Assembly: GCA_964291315.2 (NCBI GenBank)
Contig: OZ219753.1
Coordinates: forward strand, 1,184,001-1,248,000
Direction: 5' to 3'
From: Candidatus Poribacteria bacterium
GTDB taxonomy: Bacteria; Poribacteria; WGA-4E; WGA-3G
Length of the DNA stretch: 64,000 nt
Shown here: piece by piece, positions 43,992-53,124 of the stretch
Position numbering within the stretch: position 1 is the stretch's first letter
Layout of the letters: every line of letters begins with the position of its first letter
Notes under the pieces: model-generated
The model's input: only the letters and a program-made list of their open reading frames with translations
Told to the model about the DNA's origin: nothing
Databases searched by the model: none
Translations under genes and position numbers: made by a program

Positions 43992-45038
43992 ATGAACTAT
44001 CGTGACCTGAGGATCGGAGCGTTAAAAGCAGAACTCAAAAAGCGGGGATTGAAAGGGTATTCATCGTTAAAAAAAGCTCAAATGATTGAATATCTTTCAA
44101 CAGGAATTCACCCGCTGAAACAGACAGAAGCATCTCCCATGGTAGCGGAGAGTGAAATGCTCGATTCGTCTCCTGAAGAAACTGAATATTCACCGACTAT
44201 TTTGGAGGGTACCACCCAAAAACTTCCAATCAATCAAGTTATATTGGGGAACTGTTTAAAGATTTTGCGATCTTTTCCTGATGGCGTTTTCGATTGTTGT
44301 ATTGCCGACCCGCCATTTAATATGTCGAGAAAAAAAGGGTTGGGTTGGGCCTTTAGTTCCCATGTTACAATGCAGGAACAGTGGGATATTTTCGCAAAAG
44401 ACGACTATTTTCAGTTCACGGTTGACTGGCTTCGTGAGGTATTAAGGGTGCTGAAGACAAACGGAAACTTGTTTGTTTTTGGGTCTTTCCACTGTATCTT
44501 TACAATCGGTTTTATTCTTCAAAACCTGTTTGACCGCCGAATCATCAGCCAACTAGTTTGGTACAAACCTAATGCACAACCTAATATCACCTGCCGTATG
44601 TTTACCGAATCGACTGAATTTATCGTTTGGGCAGTCAACAATGAAAGCAAAAAGGCCAAAAATTGGACGTTCAATTATGAGGTGATGAAAGGGCTAAACA
44701 ATAACAAACAAATGCGAAATGTGTGGGAGATTCCGCTTACCAAACGATCAGAACGGACGTATGGGAAACATCCGTCACAAAAGCCTGTTGCTGTTGTCAA
44801 TCGGCTTGTCTTAGCGGGAACTCATAAAGGTGATCTCATTCTTGATCCATTCTCTGGGACCGGAACTACAGCGGTTGTGGCTGAACAAAACAGTCGGAGA
44901 TGGGTCATGATTGAAAAGGAAGAAGCGTATAACGAAATTGCGCGACAGAGGCTTGGTGAGTTGGCCAATATGCTGTTTGAAGGTGATTCAGAGACCGATG
45001 AGAAACCTTTTTTCCCTTCACTGCTTGCGGTAGAATAG
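43992..45038 (+). CDS. Orphan beta-class DNA methyltransferase (DpnA/CcrM-like) with N-terminal Rho_N/SAP-like domain
   Basis: DPPF catalytic motif precedes LDPFSGTGTT; HPSQKP; N-terminal LKAELKKRGLKGYSSLKKAQMIEYL. Confidence 0.88.
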   Translation: MNYRDLRIGALKAELKKRGLKGYSSLKKAQMIEYLSTGIHPLKQTEASPMVAESEMLDSSPEETEYSPTILEGTTQKLPINQVILGNCLKILRSFPDGVFDCCIADPPFNMSRKKGLGWAFSSHVTMQEQWDIFAKDDYFQFTVDWLREVLRVLKTNGNLFVFGSFHCIFTIGFILQNLFDRRIISQLVWYKPNAQPNITCRMFTESTEFIVWAVNNESKKAKNWTFNYEVMKGLNNNKQMRNVWEIPLTKRSERTYGKHPSQKPVAVVNRLVLAGTHKGDLILDPFSGTGTTAVVAEQNSRRWVMIEKEEAYNEIARQRLGELANMLFEGDSETDEKPFFPSLLAVE

Positions 45039-45933: not shown

Positions 45934-47103
45934 ATGTTGAGTTACTTCTTACCTCCACGAATTGAATTTGGAAACGATGCCATCCAAAATTTGGGTAAGT
46001 ACGTCAAAATGTTTGATGGCAGAAAGCCGTTCTTGGTGAGCGACAGCGGGGTTATCAACGCCGGTATCCTCGCCAAGGCAATAGACGTATTGGAGGCAGC
46101 CGGTTTGGCGCACGCCACTTATTCAGACATCCAACCGAATCCGACAGACCTCAGCGTCATCGCGGGGGTGGAGGTCTACAAAAAGGAAGCATGCGACGTG
46201 GTTGTTGCTGTCGGCGGCGGGAGCGTGATGGATGCAGCAAAAGCCGTTCGGCTCCTAACAACGCATGAGCCGCCTTTGGAGACCTACTATGTTGATAGCG
46301 GCGGGATTGAACGGATCCGCGGCGATATGCCGCCCCTCGTATGCGTTCCAACAACCGCTGGCACGGGCAGTGAGGTCTCACAAGGCGCGATTATCACGGA
46401 TACATCGCTACAGACAACCGATCGCTGGCGAAAGCGCGCAATCGTTACACCGTTTAACATGGCGAACGTGGCACTCCTTGACCCCGCAATAATAGGCGGT
46501 ATGCCGCCCGCACTCACCGCTGCGACCGGTATGGATGCTATCACCCATGGGATCGAGGCGTACGTCGCGACAAAGTACCACCCGATTGCCGAGGGAGTGG
46601 CGTTACAGGCACTCAAGATGTTAAGTGCGAATATCCAGCAGGTCTATCGTAACGGGGAAGACATAACCGCACGGGGCGAGATGCTGCTCGGCTCATGCAT
46701 GGCGGCATTCTCATTCCAAAAGGGGCTCGGCGCTGTCCACTCCTTGGCGCATCAGCTCTCCACAGACGCACCGATCCCGCACGGGGTCGCGAACGCCCTG
46801 CTCCTTCCACCCGTCATGGCATTTAACTTTTCTCATGCAGCTGAGAAGTACGCTGAGATCGCGCGTGCCTTAGGAGTAGAAACCGAGAACATGGACACCG
46901 ACGCGGCAGCACATGCTGCGATTGATAAAATTCGGGCGTTTAACACTGAACTAGATATGCCCGCCGGACTCGGAGCCGCCGGCTTAGATCGAGCGAAGAT
47001 CCCGAAACTCAGCGCGGATGCAATGCTCGATCACTGTCACACATTCAATCCGAGGGAGTGCAGAAAAGCCGATATGGTCGCGTTGCTTGAGGCGGCATTT
47101 TGA
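45934..47103 (+). CDS. Iron-containing alcohol dehydrogenase
   Basis: GGGSVMDAAK, PTTAGTGSE, GMDAITHGIEAY, GLGAVHSLAH, PHGVAN. Confidence 0.93.
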   Translation: MLSYFLPPRIEFGNDAIQNLGKYVKMFDGRKPFLVSDSGVINAGILAKAIDVLEAAGLAHATYSDIQPNPTDLSVIAGVEVYKKEACDVVVAVGGGSVMDAAKAVRLLTTHEPPLETYYVDSGGIERIRGDMPPLVCVPTTAGTGSEVSQGAIITDTSLQTTDRWRKRAIVTPFNMANVALLDPAIIGGMPPALTAATGMDAITHGIEAYVATKYHPIAEGVALQALKMLSANIQQVYRNGEDITARGEMLLGSCMAAFSFQKGLGAVHSLAHQLSTDAPIPHGVANALLLPPVMAFNFSHAAEKYAEIARALGVETENMDTDAAAHAAIDKIRAFNTELDMPAGLGAAGLDRAKIPKLSADAMLDHCHTFNPRECRKADMVALLEAAF

Positions 47104-47127
47104 TTGCCAACGCTCTTTTCGGCACTT

Positions 47128-47151
47128 GTAGCATAGACTGTTAGTCTGTGC
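47128..47151 (+). repeat. GTAG-type REP-like palindrome
   Basis: GTAGCATAGACT-GTT-AGTCTGTGC; related copies at 48231, 48358(-), 48403, 50762 and 50873(-). Confidence 0.6.
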
Positions 47152-47250
47152 CGCAGCAGTCTCTGCTATAGATATAGCAACAATCCGCTCTTTTCCTCGC
47201 TTGTGTTGGGAAAGAGGAATATTAAACACTTAAAAAAGGAGTATTTTCCG

Positions 47251-48135
47251 ATGAAAACGTATTTGAGGATCCCGAAACTTATGATTGCGGCGCTTGCTAT
47301 CGGCGCATGCTGCTTCGTTTTCTACGCCTGTGAGGTTGTAGATATTGGCGTTGTCACTAGCCCGTTGCAGGAGACTCCTGCTCCGCCAGAGAACATGGTG
47401 TTAATTCCTGCGGGGGAGTTTCAGATGGGTAGCAACGATGCAGATTCTCGCGCGGATGAGCAGCCCATCCATACCGTCTCTGTAGACGCGTTTTATATGG
47501 ATACGCACGAAGTGACAAACGCAGAATATGCGGCGTTTCTGAATGCCTGGGGCAACGATGATTGGTCTGATATCAACGCCGATGGGGCGCGCATTGAGCT
47601 TGTAGCAGGCATGTATCGGCCCGTGTCGGGGTACGCGGATCATCCGGTTGTTGAGGTGAGTTGGTATGGCGCGATGGCGTATGCGGAGTGGGCAGATAAA
47701 CGGCTGCCGACCGAAGCGGAGTGGGAATATGCCGCACGCGGCGGACTATCGGGCCAGAAATATCCGTGGGGCGACACGATTGATAGCACACACGCCAACT
47801 ACGCCGGCAATGCCGGTAGTACGACAGCGGTAGGCAGTTATGCAGCGAATGGGTACGGTTTGCATGATATGGCGGGGAACGTCTACGAATGGTGCTTAGA
47901 TGCGTATGACGAGGAGTTCTACGCCACCTCTCCTGCTCGGAATCCGCTGTCGGGTGCACCCAATATTAAGTGGTTATCAGACAACTATGAAGAAGTTAAT
48001 TCTGACCGCGTGTTACGTGGCGGTTCCTGGCCCAATACTGCCCGGGACGTGCGGGTCGCCGCTCGCGGCCTCAATGCGCCGTCGGTCACGGATGTCTTCT
48101 TCGGTTTCCGTTGTGTCAGGTCTGTATCCCCTTGA
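47251..48135 (+). CDS. FGE-sulfatase/SUMF1-fold (C-type lectin) lipoprotein, probable DGR target
   Basis: AAGGAG RBS, lipobox-like FYAC, MVLIPAGEFQMGS, RLPTEAEWEYAARGG, GLHDMAGNVYEW, RGGSW...GFRC; lacks the catalytic FGE cysteine pair. Confidence 0.88.
   Translation: MKTYLRIPKLMIAALAIGACCFVFYACEVVDIGVVTSPLQETPAPPENMVLIPAGEFQMGSNDADSRADEQPIHTVSVDAFYMDTHEVTNAEYAAFLNAWGNDDWSDINADGARIELVAGMYRPVSGYADHPVVEVSWYGAMAYAEWADKRLPTEAEWEYAARGGLSGQKYPWGDTIDSTHANYAGNAGSTTAVGSYAANGYGLHDMAGNVYEWCLDAYDEEFYATSPARNPLSGAPNIKWLSDNYEEVNSDRVLRGGSWPNTARDVRVAARGLNAPSVTDVFFGFRCVRSVSP
48007..48135 (+). repeat. Putative DGR variable repeat VR1
   Basis: Aligns with 49679-49804 and 50519-50656; differences concentrate at codon positions 1-2 of NNC/NNT and position 1 of NCG. 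Confidence 0.7.
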
Positions 48136-48426
48136 ATCTTTACTGTTTAACGCATTTTTCTTCTTAGGTTGTGCCGCAGCAGTCCCCGTGGCACAACCTG
48201 CTGAGGGGTGCCTTGTAGCATAGTCCCCTTGTAGCATAACCTGTTAGGTTGTGCATTGTATCATGTTGCTTGTAAGGATTTACTTGTAATGTGAGTTGGG
48301 TGATAAGCACCGAAGAGGCACAGGAAACTAACAGCCTACGATACAAGAACTGAAGAGGCACAGACTATCAGCCTATGCTACAAGAACATAAAGGATTTAC
48401 TTGTGGCATAACCTGTTAGGTTGTGC
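48136..48426 (+). repeat. Conserved post-VR segment with hairpin (48166-48199) and REP-like cluster
   Basis: Near-identical to 50657-50785; AGGTTGTGCC...GGCACAACCT stem; repeated ATAACCTGTTAGGTTGTGC. Confidence 0.7.
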
Positions 48427-48451
48427 ATTCTATCAAATATATTAAATATAA

Positions 48452-50656
48452 ATGAAAAAAAGTAGAAATGGTATGAGAAGAACATTGTTCGTTCTGTCTA
48501 TTTTGGCGGTGCTGGTGTTTTCGGTTGCTCAGTTAGCAGCGGCGCAATGGAAGGCGAACCAAGTAACGAATCAGACAGATGAGAATGTAGATGTGATCCA
48601 TTCGACGTGGCGGCCTGCGAAAGAAGATATTCCGAACGGATTTCGGACGCGCGGGCATTATCGCCTGGCTCCGGGTGAGACTCGGCAATTTTATGCGTGG
48701 TCAGACAACAGCATCTATTTCCGCATCTTGCGTTCGGGTGAGGCGATAAAACCGAACGTTGATAAGGTGACGTTTAGTTTTTGGGTTCATCCGTCTCGTT
48801 CGTTTATGATAGTCTCGGACGAGCTGAGTGCTGCCGTGAAGTTTTCTGATTTGAGTTATGTGAATCGTTCTCGCGAGGGTTTTGTTCGTGAGGATGGTTT
48901 TATGAAGTATTCGAATGGCTCTGTTGTGAATATCACGTCTGGCTGGGTGTCCGTAGTTCCGGATGCGCCGGGTGCTGGCGATGGTGTGGGTCCTGGTGCT
49001 ACGACTACCCCTACGCCGCCGCAGGAGTCTCCTGCTCCGCCCGAGGGCATGGTGTTGATCCCTGCGGGCGAGTTTGAGATGGGCAGCAACGATGCAGATT
49101 CTTACTGGGATAAGCCGCACATTCATACTGTCTACGTGGATGCGTTTTATATGGACACACATGAAGTGACGAACGCAGACTTCCAGCGATTTGTGTTGGC
49201 GAACCCACAGTGGCAGAAGAGCCGGATTCCGGACAACTTGCACGGCGGAAACTACCTGAGGCATTGGGATGATTTTAATAACTATCCTGCGGGCAAGGCG
49301 AACCATCCTGTGGTTTGGGTGAGTTGGTATGGTGCAGTGGCGTATGCGAAGTGGGCAGGCAAGCGGCTCCCCACAGAGGCGGAGTGGGAGAAAGCCGCAC
49401 GCGGCGGCAAGTCGGGGCTAAAGTATCCCTGGGGAAACACGATTAGCCATACGCACGCGAACTACGGCAATAATGTCGGTGGGACGACGGCAGTGGGTGC
49501 GTATCCAGCGAATGGGTATGGTCTCTATGATATGGCCGGGAATGTCTACGAGTGGTGTCTGGATGCGTATGACGGGAACTTCTATGTTCGGTCCCCTGCT
49601 CGTAACCCCGTATCGGACGTGAATACACTGTCCAATATATTCCTAATATTAAATAATTACACCCAAATTAAGATGTCCCGCGTCTTTCGTGGCGGCAACT
49701 GCTACGATACAGCACAGGACGTGCGGGTCGCCCACCGCAACGCCTATTCGCCGCCGGCCTCGAACTCCGGCCTCGGGTTCCGTTGTGCGAGGTCCGTATC
49801 CCCTTCGGATGCTGGTGATGGTGTAGGTACTGGTGCTACTCCTCCTGTGCCTAGTGTCACCCCGCCGTCGCCGGAGGCTGCTGCTGCGCCCGAAGGCATG
49901 GTGTTAATTCCTGCGGGTGAGTTTGAGATGGGCAGCAACGATGCAGATTCTTACCCGGATGAGCAGCCCGTCCATACCGTCTACGTAGATGCGTTTTACA
50001 TGGACACACATGAAGTGACGAACGCGGAATTCAAGCGTTTTGTGTTGGCGAACCCACAGTGGCAGAAGAGCCGTATGCCGCACAACTTACACAATCAGTT
50101 CTACCTATTTCGGTGGAGTAGTCCTCCCAACTATCCTCGGCGCGAGGCGAACCATCCTGTTGCTGGGGTGTTTTGGCATGCTGCCGTGGCGTATGCGAAG
50201 TGGGCAGGCAAACGGCTCCCCACAGAGGCGGAGTGGGAGAAAGCTGCACGCGGTGGCAAGTCGGGGCTAAAGTATCCCTGGGGAAACACGATTAGCCGCA
50301 CGCGTGCGAACTACGGCGGATATCTCGGTGGAACGTATACAGTGGGTAGATATCCTGCGAATGGGTATGGTCTCTATGATATGGTGGGGAATGTCTGGGA
50401 GTGGTGTCTGGATGCGTATGACAAAAACTTCTATACCATTTCACCTACTTCTAATCCGCTATCGGGTGCGTCTAGTATTCAGTGGCTATTAGCTAATTAT
50501 GCAGAGATTAAGACTAAACGCGTCTTGCGTGGCGGCTCCTGGAGCGATCTATTCTCTGCGGAGCGGAAGGCGCGGGTTGCCTACCGCTTCGGCGGTACGC
50601 CTACGGGCGCGCACTACCTCCGCGGGTTCCGTTGCGCAAAGTCTGTATCCCCTTGA
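48452..50656 (+). CDS. Secreted protein with N-terminal beta domain and two tandem FGE/C-type-lectin domains, probable DGR target
   Basis: Signal peptide; two near-identical PEGMVLIPAGEFEMGS...RLPTEAEWEKAARGG...GFRC.SVSP units separated by Pro/Thr linkers. Confidence 0.88.
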   Translation: MKKSRNGMRRTLFVLSILAVLVFSVAQLAAAQWKANQVTNQTDENVDVIHSTWRPAKEDIPNGFRTRGHYRLAPGETRQFYAWSDNSIYFRILRSGEAIKPNVDKVTFSFWVHPSRSFMIVSDELSAAVKFSDLSYVNRSREGFVREDGFMKYSNGSVVNITSGWVSVVPDAPGAGDGVGPGATTTPTPPQESPAPPEGMVLIPAGEFEMGSNDADSYWDKPHIHTVYVDAFYMDTHEVTNADFQRFVLANPQWQKSRIPDNLHGGNYLRHWDDFNNYPAGKANHPVVWVSWYGAVAYAKWAGKRLPTEAEWEKAARGGKSGLKYPWGNTISHTHANYGNNVGGTTAVGAYPANGYGLYDMAGNVYEWCLDAYDGNFYVRSPARNPVSDVNTLSNIFLILNNYTQIKMSRVFRGGNCYDTAQDVRVAHRNAYSPPASNSGLGFRCARSVSPSDAGDGVGTGATPPVPSVTPPSPEAAAAPEGMVLIPAGEFEMGSNDADSYPDEQPVHTVYVDAFYMDTHEVTNAEFKRFVLANPQWQKSRMPHNLHNQFYLFRWSSPPNYPRREANHPVAGVFWHAAVAYAKWAGKRLPTEAEWEKAARGGKSGLKYPWGNTISRTRANYGGYLGGTYTVGRYPANGYGLYDMVGNVWEWCLDAYDKNFYTISPTSNPLSGASSIQWLLANYAEIKTKRVLRGGSWSDLFSAERKARVAYRFGGTPTGAHYLRGFRCAKSVSP
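49679..49804 (+). repeat. Putative DGR variable repeat VR2 (internal to gene)
   Basis: Same A-position-biased divergence relative to VR1 and VR3. Confidence 0.65.
50519..50656 (+). repeat. Putative DGR variable repeat VR3
   Basis: Same pattern, with a 3-codon insertion after GGSW; ends TCTGTATCCCCTTGA like VR1. Confidence 0.65.
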
Positions 50657-50896
50657 ATCTTTACTGTTTAACGCATTTCACTCCATTTTTCTTGTTAGGT
50701 TGTGCTGCAGCAGTCCTCGTAGCACAACCTGCTGAGGGGTGCCTTGTACTACAGTCCCCTTGTGTCATAACCTGTTAGGTTGTGCCTCCCCTCATAGTTT
50801 AAGGTGTCCAATTTGTGAGTTGATACTCAATCGCACAGGAAACCGACAGCCTATGCTACAAGCGTCGAAGAAGCACAGACTGGCAGTCTATGCTAC
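50657..50896 (+). repeat. Conserved post-VR segment with hairpin (50697-50730) and REP-like cluster
   Basis: AGGTTGTGCT...AGCACAACCT stem; GCACAGACTGGCAGTCTATGCTAC at 50873-50896. Confidence 0.7.
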
Positions 50897-50904
50897 AACT
50901 CCCT

Positions 50905-53124
50905 CTATTCGGCAATCGGCACAATCCAACCGTTCGTCACCGCTGGTTTATACGCATTGTCGCGCAAATAATCCGAGGTATGCCACAAGCAGAGATGCTG
51001 ACCGTCTGGCATCCAGACAACCGAGGTCAGTTTTAGCGCAGTCCGCGCAATTGGAAATTTCTTACCGCTCTCTAGGTCATAAACCCAGACCTTCCAGCGG
51101 ATACCCTCACAGTCCTCACGCTCCAGATATGCCAACCGCCTCCCGGTCGGCGACCACGACGGTGATGTGTGTGCCAAAATTTCGCTCTGTGTCAAGCCCC
51201 TAACCGTTTCCGACAGGTGCAGCTGCTTATCGATCCGCCGCCCGGGTCTATTGCTGCCCGATAAAACGTATGCGATCCGGGTGCTATCTGCTGCCCAATT
51301 GAGTTGTCGCACCTGTTGATGCTGCGTCTGAATCTCTTTTATCCGCTGCCCCTCTATATCTTGAATGCGGATACCCACGTATTTTGAGTTATCTACACCA
51401 AAAGCGACGCGTGTGCCGTCAGGTGCCCAAGAAGGTGCAGGTAGATAGGTGTAAGTCCGCTGTCGACGTTCGATGGGCACCCGCGCAATAGCACGTAAAC
51501 CGCTACCGTCGCTATTGATTCGATAGATGATGTCTAGTTCCTTTTCGCGCCTTCTAAACACTAGACGGTTGGAGGTCGGAGAAAAAGCGGGCCCCTCGCC
51601 ACGGACCAACTGTTTCGTCTGGCCGAACTTCCAATCCACTGTGTAGATATAGCGCTCACCGTTTTCATCAACCTCAAACGCGACGAGCCTGCTATCCAGG
51701 GACCAAGAGAGGTGCGGATTGTAAAACTGGCCGATATAGTATTTTCGTGCTCGCGCCCCTTTCCGATCCATAATCCACAACTCATTTGCACGCCAGTATC
51801 TACTTTTCAAATCGTCCCTTTTCAGAAACGCGACCAACTCCCCATCCGGGCTCCAGCGCGGGTATTCAGCACCCTCTATCAGTTGCAGCCGGCGCGGGGA
51901 TGGCGCTGAGCCGTCAGGCTCCCGGCAAAAAGTGGTGTTGAACAAAATGCCGTCTGTCTCCTCAAATTCCCCGAAGGCAAATTTATCCATCCACCCGCGG
52001 ACACCGTTCGGCAGCTCGATGTCGTACCACCCATCTGAAACTTGCACAATGGGCAAGGACATTTCCGCATTGAGGTGTAACAGCACGGACTTTTGATCTT
52101 TTGTCGTGTAGACCGGTGCCTCGTCGTGGACCACAACGCCTGATCGCCGGGGTTCCGCAGTTGCCGGGACTGCAGCTGCGTTCGTGAAGGCGTAAACATA
52201 CCCGTCGCCAGATGCTGCGTAAAGAGTGCCATCAGATATAGCAGGTGCGGCATCTACAAAACCGCCTGTCTGGTACATCCAAGTTTCTGTATGTGATGCC
52301 GAATCAAACCCGTGGATACGTCCATCGCGCGCACCGATGTAAGTAATGCCGTTTGCTGTAACAGGATAGCTGTCGCTTCCGGCCGTATAACCGCGCCATA
52401 CCTTGGCAGCGTGCTCCGGGAACACTGGCCGGAACACGCCGTTGGCACATCCGTATTCGATGCCATGAATTCGGACTGTCCGCTCATGCATCGCCTCAAG
52501 TTCGCCCGTCCTCGCGTTCAGCACGTAGATTTTTGATGGAAACGCGCCGACATAAACCTTGTTATCGGCAACGATGGGCGGTCCGTCCATCCAACTTTTC
52601 GTTTTGAATTTCCACAGCTTTTTGCCTGTTTGTGCCCTCAATGCATGGATTTTATTGTTTCGTGCGTTGAAGTAGACGCTATCACCGAGCACCGTCGCAG
52701 AATAACGGATAGCGTCCCCGGCATCAAACACCCATTTAATCCCCCACTGCTTCGCGTCTAACGCATACAATTTTCCGTCAGTCGACCCGATATACAAGAT
52801 ACCGTTTGCAATCACCGGTGAGGCATGGAGGGGGCCACCCGTTTTGAATCTCCACAACAGCTTCAGGGGCGGCATCAGGTGTTTGTCGGGGCTAATCCCG
52901 GAAAAACCGAGGTTGTGCATAAACATGTACCAATCTTCAGCACGCGGAGGTGTAACAGCAATGACTTCGGGAGACACGGACTCCTCCACCTCGGAAGGAC
53001 GTGATGCCCCCTGCTGTGTTGAATCACACCCGCATACCAGCAGAAATACGAGTAACGCTATAAATTTTAGGGCGCAGTTCGTGTACCAACACTGGTTGTC
53101 CAGCAATCTATTCGAGAGATACAC
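50905..53124 (-). CDS. Lipoprotein with PQQ-like beta-propeller repeats, SH3b-like domain and TolB/PD40 propeller
   Basis: Lipobox-like LVCGC; W.FKTGG..ASP...LYIGSTDGKLYALDA repeats; DGWYDIELPNGVRGWM; PRWSPDG/PSWAPDG repeats. Confidence 0.8.
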   Translation of the reverse strand: MYLSNRLLDNQCWYTNCALKFIALLVFLLVCGCDSTQQGASRPSEVEESVSPEVIAVTPPRAEDWYMFMHNLGFSGISPDKHLMPPLKLLWRFKTGGPLHASPVIANGILYIGSTDGKLYALDAKQWGIKWVFDAGDAIRYSATVLGDSVYFNARNNKIHALRAQTGKKLWKFKTKSWMDGPPIVADNKVYVGAFPSKIYVLNARTGELEAMHERTVRIHGIEYGCANGVFRPVFPEHAAKVWRGYTAGSDSYPVTANGITYIGARDGRIHGFDSASHTETWMYQTGGFVDAAPAISDGTLYAASGDGYVYAFTNAAAVPATAEPRRSGVVVHDEAPVYTTKDQKSVLLHLNAEMSLPIVQVSDGWYDIELPNGVRGWMDKFAFGEFEETDGILFNTTFCREPDGSAPSPRRLQLIEGAEYPRWSPDGELVAFLKRDDLKSRYWRANELWIMDRKGARARKYYIGQFYNPHLSWSLDSRLVAFEVDENGERYIYTVDWKFGQTKQLVRGEGPAFSPTSNRLVFRRREKELDIIYRINSDGSGLRAIARVPIERRQRTYTYLPAPSWAPDGTRVAFGVDNSKYVGIRIQDIEGQRIKEIQTQHQQVRQLNWAADSTRIAYVLSGSNRPGRRIDKQLHLSETVRGLTQSEILAHTSPSWSPTGRRLAYLEREDCEGIRWKVWVYDLESGKKFPIARTALKLTSVVWMPDGQHLCLWHTSDYLRDNAYKPAVTNGWIVPIAE

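Follow-up and report, generated by a model that had tools for sequence, protein, structure and literature searches.

Are the variable C-terminal ends of three neighbouring lectin-like domains in a poribacterial genome the product of a diversity-generating retroelement (DGR), and is that retroelement still rewriting them? The question is raised by a 64,000-nt stretch, hereafter the window, of a Candidatus Poribacteria bacterium (GCA_964291315.2), namely C4:1184001-1248000 of a 4.40-Mb, four-contig genome (contigs C1 to C4; completeness 95.2%). Two genes of the window encode three domains of the formylglycine-generating enzyme (FGE)-sulfatase type, which are predicted to have a C-type lectin (CLec) fold. 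A first-pass annotation, made from the window alone, had proposed that they are dispersed targets diversified in trans by a DGR located elsewhere. Based on the comparisons below, the three C-terminal segments are very probably genuine DGR variable regions (VRs), written from a template repeat (TR) by adenine-specific error-prone reverse transcription. The features concerned are as follows, in window positions:

47251..48135, + strand: gene 1 (open reading frame, ORF, 47203-48135), 294 aa, with one FGE-sulfatase domain (Pfam PF03781, E=4.5e-67)
47389..48120, + strand: FGE-sulfatase (CLec-fold) domain 1, in gene 1 (C4:1231389-1232120; 227.2 bits)
48015..48118, + strand: VR1, core 48058-48102, aligned to TR positions 13-116; 24/33 adenines and 7/71 other bases differ
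48473..50656, + strand: gene 2 (ORF 48452-50656), 727 aa on record, with two Pfam FGE-sulfatase domains
49043..49792, + strand: FGE-sulfatase domain 2, internal in gene 2 (C4:1233043-1233792; 208.7 bits)
49687..49790, + strand: VR2, internal, core 49730-49774; 19/33 adenines and 6/71 other bases differ
49892..50641, + strand: FGE-sulfatase domain 3, C-terminal in gene 2 (C4:1233892-1234641; 211.5 bits)
50527..50639, + strand: VR3, core 50579-50623; 8/71 non-adenine mismatches plus 9 gap positions

A retroelement and its template outside the window

An RVT_1 profile search of the genome returned only two matches, C4:495366-496007 and C3:32128-32769. Both lie outside the window, in agreement with the annotation's statement that the window holds neither reverse transcriptase (RT) nor template. 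The DGR that it had placed elsewhere was found as two cassettes, each with an Avd-RT pair:

C3:~29-35 kb: C3 cassette, with an intact A-rich TR
C3:31924-32979: RT gene, intact, 352 aa
about C3:31735-31838, - strand: intact, non-coding TR that follows the C3 RT; a 121-nt stretch of it has 35 adenines
C4:~492.6-496.4 kb: duplicate cassette, about 736 kb from the window VRs
C4:495156-496211: RT gene, intact, 352 aa

The gene order is the same at both loci: an FGE-domain gene ending in a VR, a 115-aa ORF, the 352-aa RT and the TR position. The 115-aa ORF adjoining the RT is Avd, as it matches NF033474 (DivGenRetAVD) at 112.7 bits with a cut-off of 80. The best relative of the RT in the PDB is 8ub7_A (328 aa, E=4e-62), which we take to be the DGR RT of Bordetella phage BPP-1; it scores well ahead of retron and group II intron RTs, the best of the latter reaching 1.6e-22. 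Additionally, the RT contains YVDD and IGNLTSQ, presumably DGR signatures.

The C3 TR consists of a C-terminal FGE fragment only (model positions 192-255, in a 72-aa frame), and its core reads N-R-N-N-N-T-P-T-N-T-N-N-N-N-G-F in the FGE frame. The 16-codon template that had been deduced from the three VRs agrees with this TR at 45/48 bases by eye; the differences are CCA/CCG, GGT/GGG and TTT/TTC, and the codon left ambiguous in the deduction includes the true AAC. A genome with no template or RT, which had been named as the result that would overturn the proposal, is not what we observed, because an A-rich TR lies beside the C3 RT. In this case the footprint of a DGR was readable from the target genes alone and predicted a distant template almost base for base.

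The two cassettes form a 3.8-kb segmental duplication of 97.15% identity with no collinearity beyond it; that C3 is a haplotig of C4 was rejected, since the similarity is limited to these 3.8 kb. At the C4 TR position (C4:496208-496405), the sequence begins as an exact copy of the TR, every adenine included, and VR-type bases appear from about TR position 59, such that 13/33 A sites and 0/71 non-A sites are changed. The 3' flank of this segment is of the VR type, and its reading frame continues into a multi-domain FGE ORF downstream. It is best read as a TR/VR recombinant that no longer serves as a proper template, with Avd and RT intact beside it; the only intact TR is then the one on C3. We also considered the recombinant as the template of the window VRs and rejected it, as its fixed non-A states are absent from them by eye.

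Adenine-biased differences and the encoded domains

The codon strings reported by the first-pass annotation were confirmed at 48061, 49733 and 50582, each preceded by CGG-GT(C/T)-GCC. The VRs were compared with the TR over a 121-nt stretch (35 A, 86 non-A) and over TR positions 13-116 (33 A, 71 non-A), and the hypervariable core was defined as the 45 nt at TR positions 56-100 (22 A and 23 non-A sites). Over positions 13-116, the window VRs differ from the TR at 19-24 of the 33 adenines and at 6-8 of the 71 other bases. Over the 121 nt, differences fall at 26/35 A and 11/86 non-A sites in VR1 (Fisher p=1e-10), at 21/35 and 7/86 in VR2 (p=6e-9), and at 24/35 and 10/77 in VR3, which also carries a 9-nt insertion (p=8e-9). 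Adenine is replaced by each of the other three bases (A>C, A>G, A>T). Moreover, when the three cores are compared among themselves, 16-19 of the 22 TR-adenine positions differ versus 0-2 of the 23 others.

Could ordinary divergence of paralogues produce this pattern, with diversifying selection on binding loops, third positions held by codon usage and no retroelement involved? Clear non-target FGE paralogues also show an excess of mismatches at TR adenines, reaching Fisher p values of 1e-2 to 1e-5, because the TR adenines coincide with loops that are variable across the family; the p values above are to be read with this in mind. The non-A mismatch count was therefore used to discriminate targets from non-targets, and it is 6-8/71 in the window VRs versus 15-26/71 in 16 non-target paralogues. 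Similarly, the window VRs match the TR at 81-88% of silent sites and the non-target paralogues at 41-56%. In the cores of VR2 and VR3, the codons keep the third base of the TR at all non-A sites (0/23 non-A mismatches in each, with 17/22 A-site mismatches in VR3), and beside an Avd-RT pair stands a non-coding TR whose adenines coincide exactly with the variable positions. Collectively, these observations bring ordinary divergence close to refutation, and we consider it extremely improbable.

The distribution of variation in a wider family points in the same direction. The proposed alignment of more paralogues bore out the expectation that variation concentrates at the TR-Asn positions: among 42 homologues of gene 1 (55-65% identity), the 12 TR-Asn positions have an entropy of 3.25 bits, compared with 0.96 at the 28 other TR-coded positions and 1.07 overall, and 13 of the 15 most variable positions after residue 45 fall in the VR.

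Within the PF03781 match, which extends to model position 255/255, the VRs form the C-terminal end, and both CLec domains of gene 2 end in one. In a sequence comparison, a window protein matched TvpA (2y3c) at E=6e-13 and true FGEs at E=1e-40; the window domains are closer in sequence to true FGEs than to TvpA. At the FGE active site, 6muj and 2q17 have LCHDSYC, the cysteine pair of which (CxxxxC) we take to be the catalytic cysteines; the window protein has a gap and PNTARD there, and the TR encodes Asn codons at the place of this stretch. As the active-site motif is absent, the window domains are predicted to be non-catalytic. A structure model of gene 1 built from the 42-sequence alignment had a mean predicted local distance difference test (pLDDT) value of 50.2, with the C-terminal half below 50, and no placement of VR residues was drawn from it.

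The start of gene 1 is probably the ATG at 47251, where the 294-aa product on record begins. Judged by eye, gene 1 has what looks like a hydrophobic, lipoprotein-like leader and gene 2 what looks like a Sec signal peptide, and the two genes would thus encode secreted or lipoprotein-type, non-catalytic FGE/CLec binders. The N-terminal domain of gene 2 (48473-49030), which is common to DGR cis-target proteins, had no match in a Pfam search and gave a weak DUF1036-like language-model lead (score 0.87). Among the closest homologues of gene 1 from other assemblies, many combine the FGE domain with dockerin (PF00404) and cohesin (PF00963) domains, and some with protein-kinase domains.

Proposed rewriting in trans and the relic alternative

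In the proposed mechanism, Avd (115 aa), the RT (352 aa) and the C3 TR, all outside the window, would supply the machinery, and TR-derived cDNA with errors at adenine sites would overwrite the adenine-bearing span of a VR in trans. The main alternative is that the window VRs are dead relics, duplicated with an already diversified VR and never rewritten since, which now drift. To separate the two, we used silent sites: third-codon-position identity in the ~660 nt upstream of a VR, with the best upstream identity to any other aligned domain as the baseline, was set against the identity of the non-A third positions of that VR to the TR. The results are as follows:

C1:562161 (remote): 32/32 silent sites match the TR; upstream best 79%, and 45% to the C3 cis target; p=0.0012
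C4:776997 (remote): 32/32 match; upstream best 79%, and 52% to the C3 cis target; p=0.0012
C4:2166040: 30/32 match; upstream best 61%; p=9e-5
VR1: 26/32 match; upstream best 60% (121/202); p=0.014
VR2: 28/32 match; upstream best 77%; p=0.14
VR3: 26/32 match; upstream best 79%; p=0.5
four non-target controls: 41-56% silent match to the TR, not above their upstream values

The two remote VRs C1:562161 and C4:776997 belong to domains that are each other's closest aligned relatives. Their perfect silent match to the TR despite diverged domains shows, on this comparison, that trans homing operates in the genome, and on VRs as remote as those of the window. The claim of dispersed targets diversified in trans thus stands for other remote VRs; present diversification of the window VRs is unproven, given their 6-8/71 non-A mismatches. 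For VR1, the silent identity to the TR exceeds that to any paralogue, so TR information evidently entered it after its paralogue had diverged, and VR1 drifted thereafter. This argues against simple inheritance of a finished VR.

Two further observations in gene 2 speak against relics. First, VR2 has 0/40 non-A mismatches within its adenine-bearing span (TR positions 29-100) and 6/31 in the 16-nt flanks on either side of it (Fisher p=0.005), as would be seen had cDNA replaced nothing outside the span. Second, the cores of VR2 and VR3 differ at 16/22 A sites and at 0/23 non-A sites, and 23% of silent sites differ between the domains upstream of them; with about 13 silent sites in the core, the probability that none would differ is 0.77^13 = 0.03. 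This core free of silent changes points to recent rewriting, and we regard it as suggestive only.

Several points weigh against rewriting of the window VRs and for the relic alternative. The silent data of VR2 and VR3 do not exceed the paralogue baseline, and inheritance of an already diversified VR by duplication would explain them equally well. Non-A mismatches (6-8/71) occur in every window VR, 13 other segments of the genome fit the TR better, and the window VRs rank between the extremes of a gradation that ends in clear non-targets. The VR1 core has 2/23 non-A mismatches, both third-position C>T and silent. In VR2, non-A mismatches at TR positions 23, 24 and 28 lie right beside two A-site changes (29 and 32), which must therefore be older than the divergence of the flank; in its GGSW motif, VR2 also has Asn-Cys where Ser-Trp is conserved. 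VR3 has a 5' half that does not align to the TR and contains a 9-nt (3-codon) insertion, which a full-length homing event would erase. The cis VRs are followed by a tight hairpin (11-bp stem, 3-nt loop, z=-4.5), from which the one downstream of VR1 and VR3 (12-bp stem, 7-10-nt loop, z about -2.3) differs. The only intact TR is on a different contig from the window, and the insertion at this locus is recent, which would allow the genes to have come in as finished units. Finally, in the accessible portions of two reports on remote targets (PMC5758913, PMC10907252), such targets show A-to-N differences only, with minor exceptions, and by this published standard the window VRs would not be counted among them.

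Weighing both sides, we lean slightly towards VR2 being rewritten in trans still, or until very recently. The same reading for the 3' core of VR3 is tentative, somewhat short of an even chance, and continued activity of VR1 is unlikely; VR1 and the 5' half of VR3 look eroded, as former targets would. That all window VRs are relics retains a substantial probability, although less than half.

We also considered whether the mismatches reflect a different TR variant, recently lost or missing from the 95%-complete assembly, that serves the window VRs. All three VRs have T>C at TR position 106, and VR2 and VR3 also have T>G at 103. The TRs of related Poribacteria keep this same A-rich template, and their final codons vary (GGG TTT, GGA TTC, GGT TTC) at exactly these two codons. 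Against this idea, only one or two 3'-end positions are common to the VRs, and the other 4-6 non-A mismatches per VR are private. Moreover, a cassette-proximal VR, C4:501334-501454, has the same GGG TTC end with a perfect core, so the 3' 16 nt may simply not be transferred. A BLAST search of the genome with the TR revealed no second A-rich copy, and there are only two RTs. A separate TR variant is thus quite improbable, and the C3 TR is the preferred source of the window VRs.

Genome-wide series, locus history and known systems

A BLAST search gave 45 hits of at least 60 nt to the TR in the genome, the TR itself included, and the other 44 segments were scored over TR positions 13-116:

0-1/71 non-A mismatches: 8 segments, comprising both cis VRs, the recombinant and five others
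2-4/71: 5 segments, which include the remote C1:562161 and C4:776997
6-8/71: 8 segments, with VR2 at 6, VR1 at 7 and VR3 at 8 plus the 9-nt insertion
9-13/71: 7 segments
15-26/71: 16 segments, clear non-targets

A-site mismatches range over 13-25/33 in every class, so the A-site count alone does not discriminate between them. The 13 segments that fit the TR better than the window VRs (0-4 non-A mismatches) include remote ones, and examples of strict VRs are C3:33443-33563, C4:494575-494695, C4:500488-500608 and C1:562161-562281. By these counts, the window VRs are placed between strict VRs and non-target paralogues. PF03781 has 67 matches in the genome, TR and recombinant included, and the suggested count of paralogues sharing a terminal motif gave exactly 9 occurrences of TCTGTATCCCCT, always at the end of an FGE domain.

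An additional locus, C4:2727624-2733270, contains an ORF of up to 1613 aa with five tandem FGE domains and a sixth in the preceding 335-aa ORF. Each domain of this array ends in a TR-like segment with 7-12/71 non-A mismatches, and the locus can be described as an array of eroded VRs.

Whether one intact TR and two RT/Avd copies serve more than 20 VRs, in a dozen or more genes on at least three contigs and including tandem proteins with two to six VRs, is doubtful; if they do, this would be among the largest target repertoires known for a single DGR. We likewise regard as speculative, and rather unlikely, the reading of the genome as a birth-to-death series of perfect, slightly eroded (the window) and dead DGR targets. 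With roughly 44 TR-like segments that range between perfect and decayed, and with the recombinant cassette, the genome lends itself to studying how far a remote target can diverge at non-A sites and still undergo homing, and by what course families of DGR targets grow and disappear. On the reading of a large and graded repertoire, targets would stay rewritable despite several non-adenine mismatches, and a poribacterial, probably sponge-associated, bacterium would possess a hypervariable surface-lectin library.

To reveal the history of the locus, the window genes and their surroundings were compared within and between genomes. Within the genome, the FGE region of the window is most similar in DNA to targets linked to the cassettes (about 80%). 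For the 5' leader and N-terminal domain of gene 2 (48353-48993), DNA identity to the C3 cis target is 83%, and gene 2 is evidently a paralogue of that cis target. The genes on either side of the two window genes, one alcohol-dehydrogenase-like and one of 739 aa, abut in 12 of 18 genomes of the same genus (12-88 bp between the matched stretches); in the remaining genomes the spacing is about 1 kb in one and 3.8-24 kb in five. In G004 and G010, two same-genus genomes, the gap holds unrelated WD40-type genes with no FGE-like ORF, as read by eye from the translations. As the flanks abut in most relatives and no FGE ORF occurs in these two, the two window genes would be a lineage-particular insertion at a locus unoccupied in most relatives within the genus. 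The RT has a scattered distribution there: a search of 60 other genomes found it in 6, in 5 of these at full length (80-83% identity), and its nearest named relatives (78-83%) are all from metagenome-assembled genomes titled Candidatus Poribacteria.

Data from natural populations were also consulted. Both window proteins are single members of their 90% clusters, the best homologue of gene 1 in protein collections has 68% identity, and a protein look-up gave no near-identical strain variants of either. A scan of metagenome contigs with the N-terminal domain of gene 2 gave 75 pattern matches and no relative. Contigs of 4 public runs from one study were placed on window positions 47000-50900, where hundreds of short contigs of paralogues or related strains cross-mapped. 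Among the best 40 of 601 differences none lies in a VR core; these differences are confounded by paralogues, and no conclusion was drawn from them.

The 3' flanks offered possible recognition elements. The sequence common to TR and VR ends with ...GTGCGA, immediately beyond which the two are unlike, and the flank of the window VRs is of the VR type. Two inverted repeats follow the VRs of the window:

48166..48199, + strand: inverted repeat ~45 nt after VR1, 12-bp stem, -13.2 kcal/mol, z=-2.4
50697..50730, + strand: inverted repeat ~55 nt after VR3, a copy of the post-VR1 repeat, -12.4 kcal/mol, z=-2.2

The second keeps its stem via a compensatory C:G to T:A change. These repeats belong to ~95-nt 3' flanks of gene 1 (48136-48230) and gene 2 (50657-50760) that are ~90% alike by eye and present only 2-3 times in the genome; the domains upstream of the two flanks have only 58% of silent sites in common. 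The post-stop motif TGA(A/G)NCTTTA... was rejected as a DGR recognition element, as it also follows non-target paralogues. Intergenic palindromes of the GGCACAGACT...TGCTACAAG type were likewise rejected as a DGR part, being dispersed repeats that resemble repetitive extragenic palindromic (REP) elements, with ~25-46 genome copies. REP-like palindromes of the GGCACAGACT...CTATGCTACAAG type, with ~25-46 BLAST matches, flank and separate both FGE genes at 47120-47165, 48225-48420 and 50800-50905.

Among known systems, Treponema denticola is a close parallel. The accessible text of one report (PMC5758913) describes one DGR thought to serve related scattered targets, with seven remote TvpA-like FGE targets, and reports that 10 DGRs have, between them, 29 targets at distances above 100 kb. 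As with Treponema TvpA in that text, the targets here are FGE-sulfatase-type CLec domains with the VR at the domain C-terminus and no formylglycine-generating active site. In contrast to what it describes for Treponema, the present genome has more VR-like segments (13 with at most 4 and 8 with 6-8 non-A mismatches), several proteins with two or three tandem VR-bearing domains, and two cassettes with one TR recombined, and the window VRs are imperfect matches.

Thiohalocapsa PB-PSB1 (PMC10907252, in the part available) similarly has remote VRs matching a distant TR, incomplete and intact cassettes, and FGE-type CLec targets. In the same part, its trans targets have no mismatch to the TR outside adenine sites, and natural populations were used to measure diversification, whereas the window VRs carry 6-8 non-A mismatches and are known from assembled sequence alone. 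The cyanobacterial DGRs covered by the accessible sections of PMC7517822 share intragenomic target paralogues with TR-VR homology near their 3' ends, duplicate cassettes (in some of the cyanobacterial genomes) and a graded set; according to those sections their targets are mostly kinase or protease signalling fusions, whereas those here are secreted or lipoprotein-type.

The organization also resembles that of Bordetella phage BPP-1 (Mtd, Avd, bRT, TR) in the combination of Avd, RT and an A-rich TR, in A-to-N changes within a CLec-fold VR, and possibly in a 3' flank that differs between VR (initiation of mutagenic homing, IMH) and TR (IMH*). Unlike the BPP-1 element, this one is chromosomal and has many targets, of the FGE type and not the Mtd type of CLec, located hundreds of kilobases away.

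Remote targets, trans action, FGE/CLec scaffolds and duplicate cassettes are thus already established elsewhere, and what stands out here is the number of TR-like segments and the recombined TR. Large metagenome surveys of DGRs could not see remote targets, according to the available part of PMC8144416. Full-text literature searches gave only incidental mentions and no description of DGRs in Poribacteria or sponge symbionts; the present results add this lineage to the organisms that use DGRs on FGE-type lectins.

Three further observations concern the surroundings and the assembly. Upstream of gene 1, window positions 43992-45038 hold a 348-aa ORF that is DNA methyltransferase-like by eye (DPPF motif), with an N-terminal SAP/Rho-N-like segment. 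C3:1-13225 is 99.99% identical to the reverse complement of C2:1-13224, probably an unresolved contig overlap. Furthermore, a repeat of ~2.4 kb, which may be an insertion sequence, occurs at C3:59206-61702 and at least five other places, on C1, C3 and C4, with 92-96% identity.

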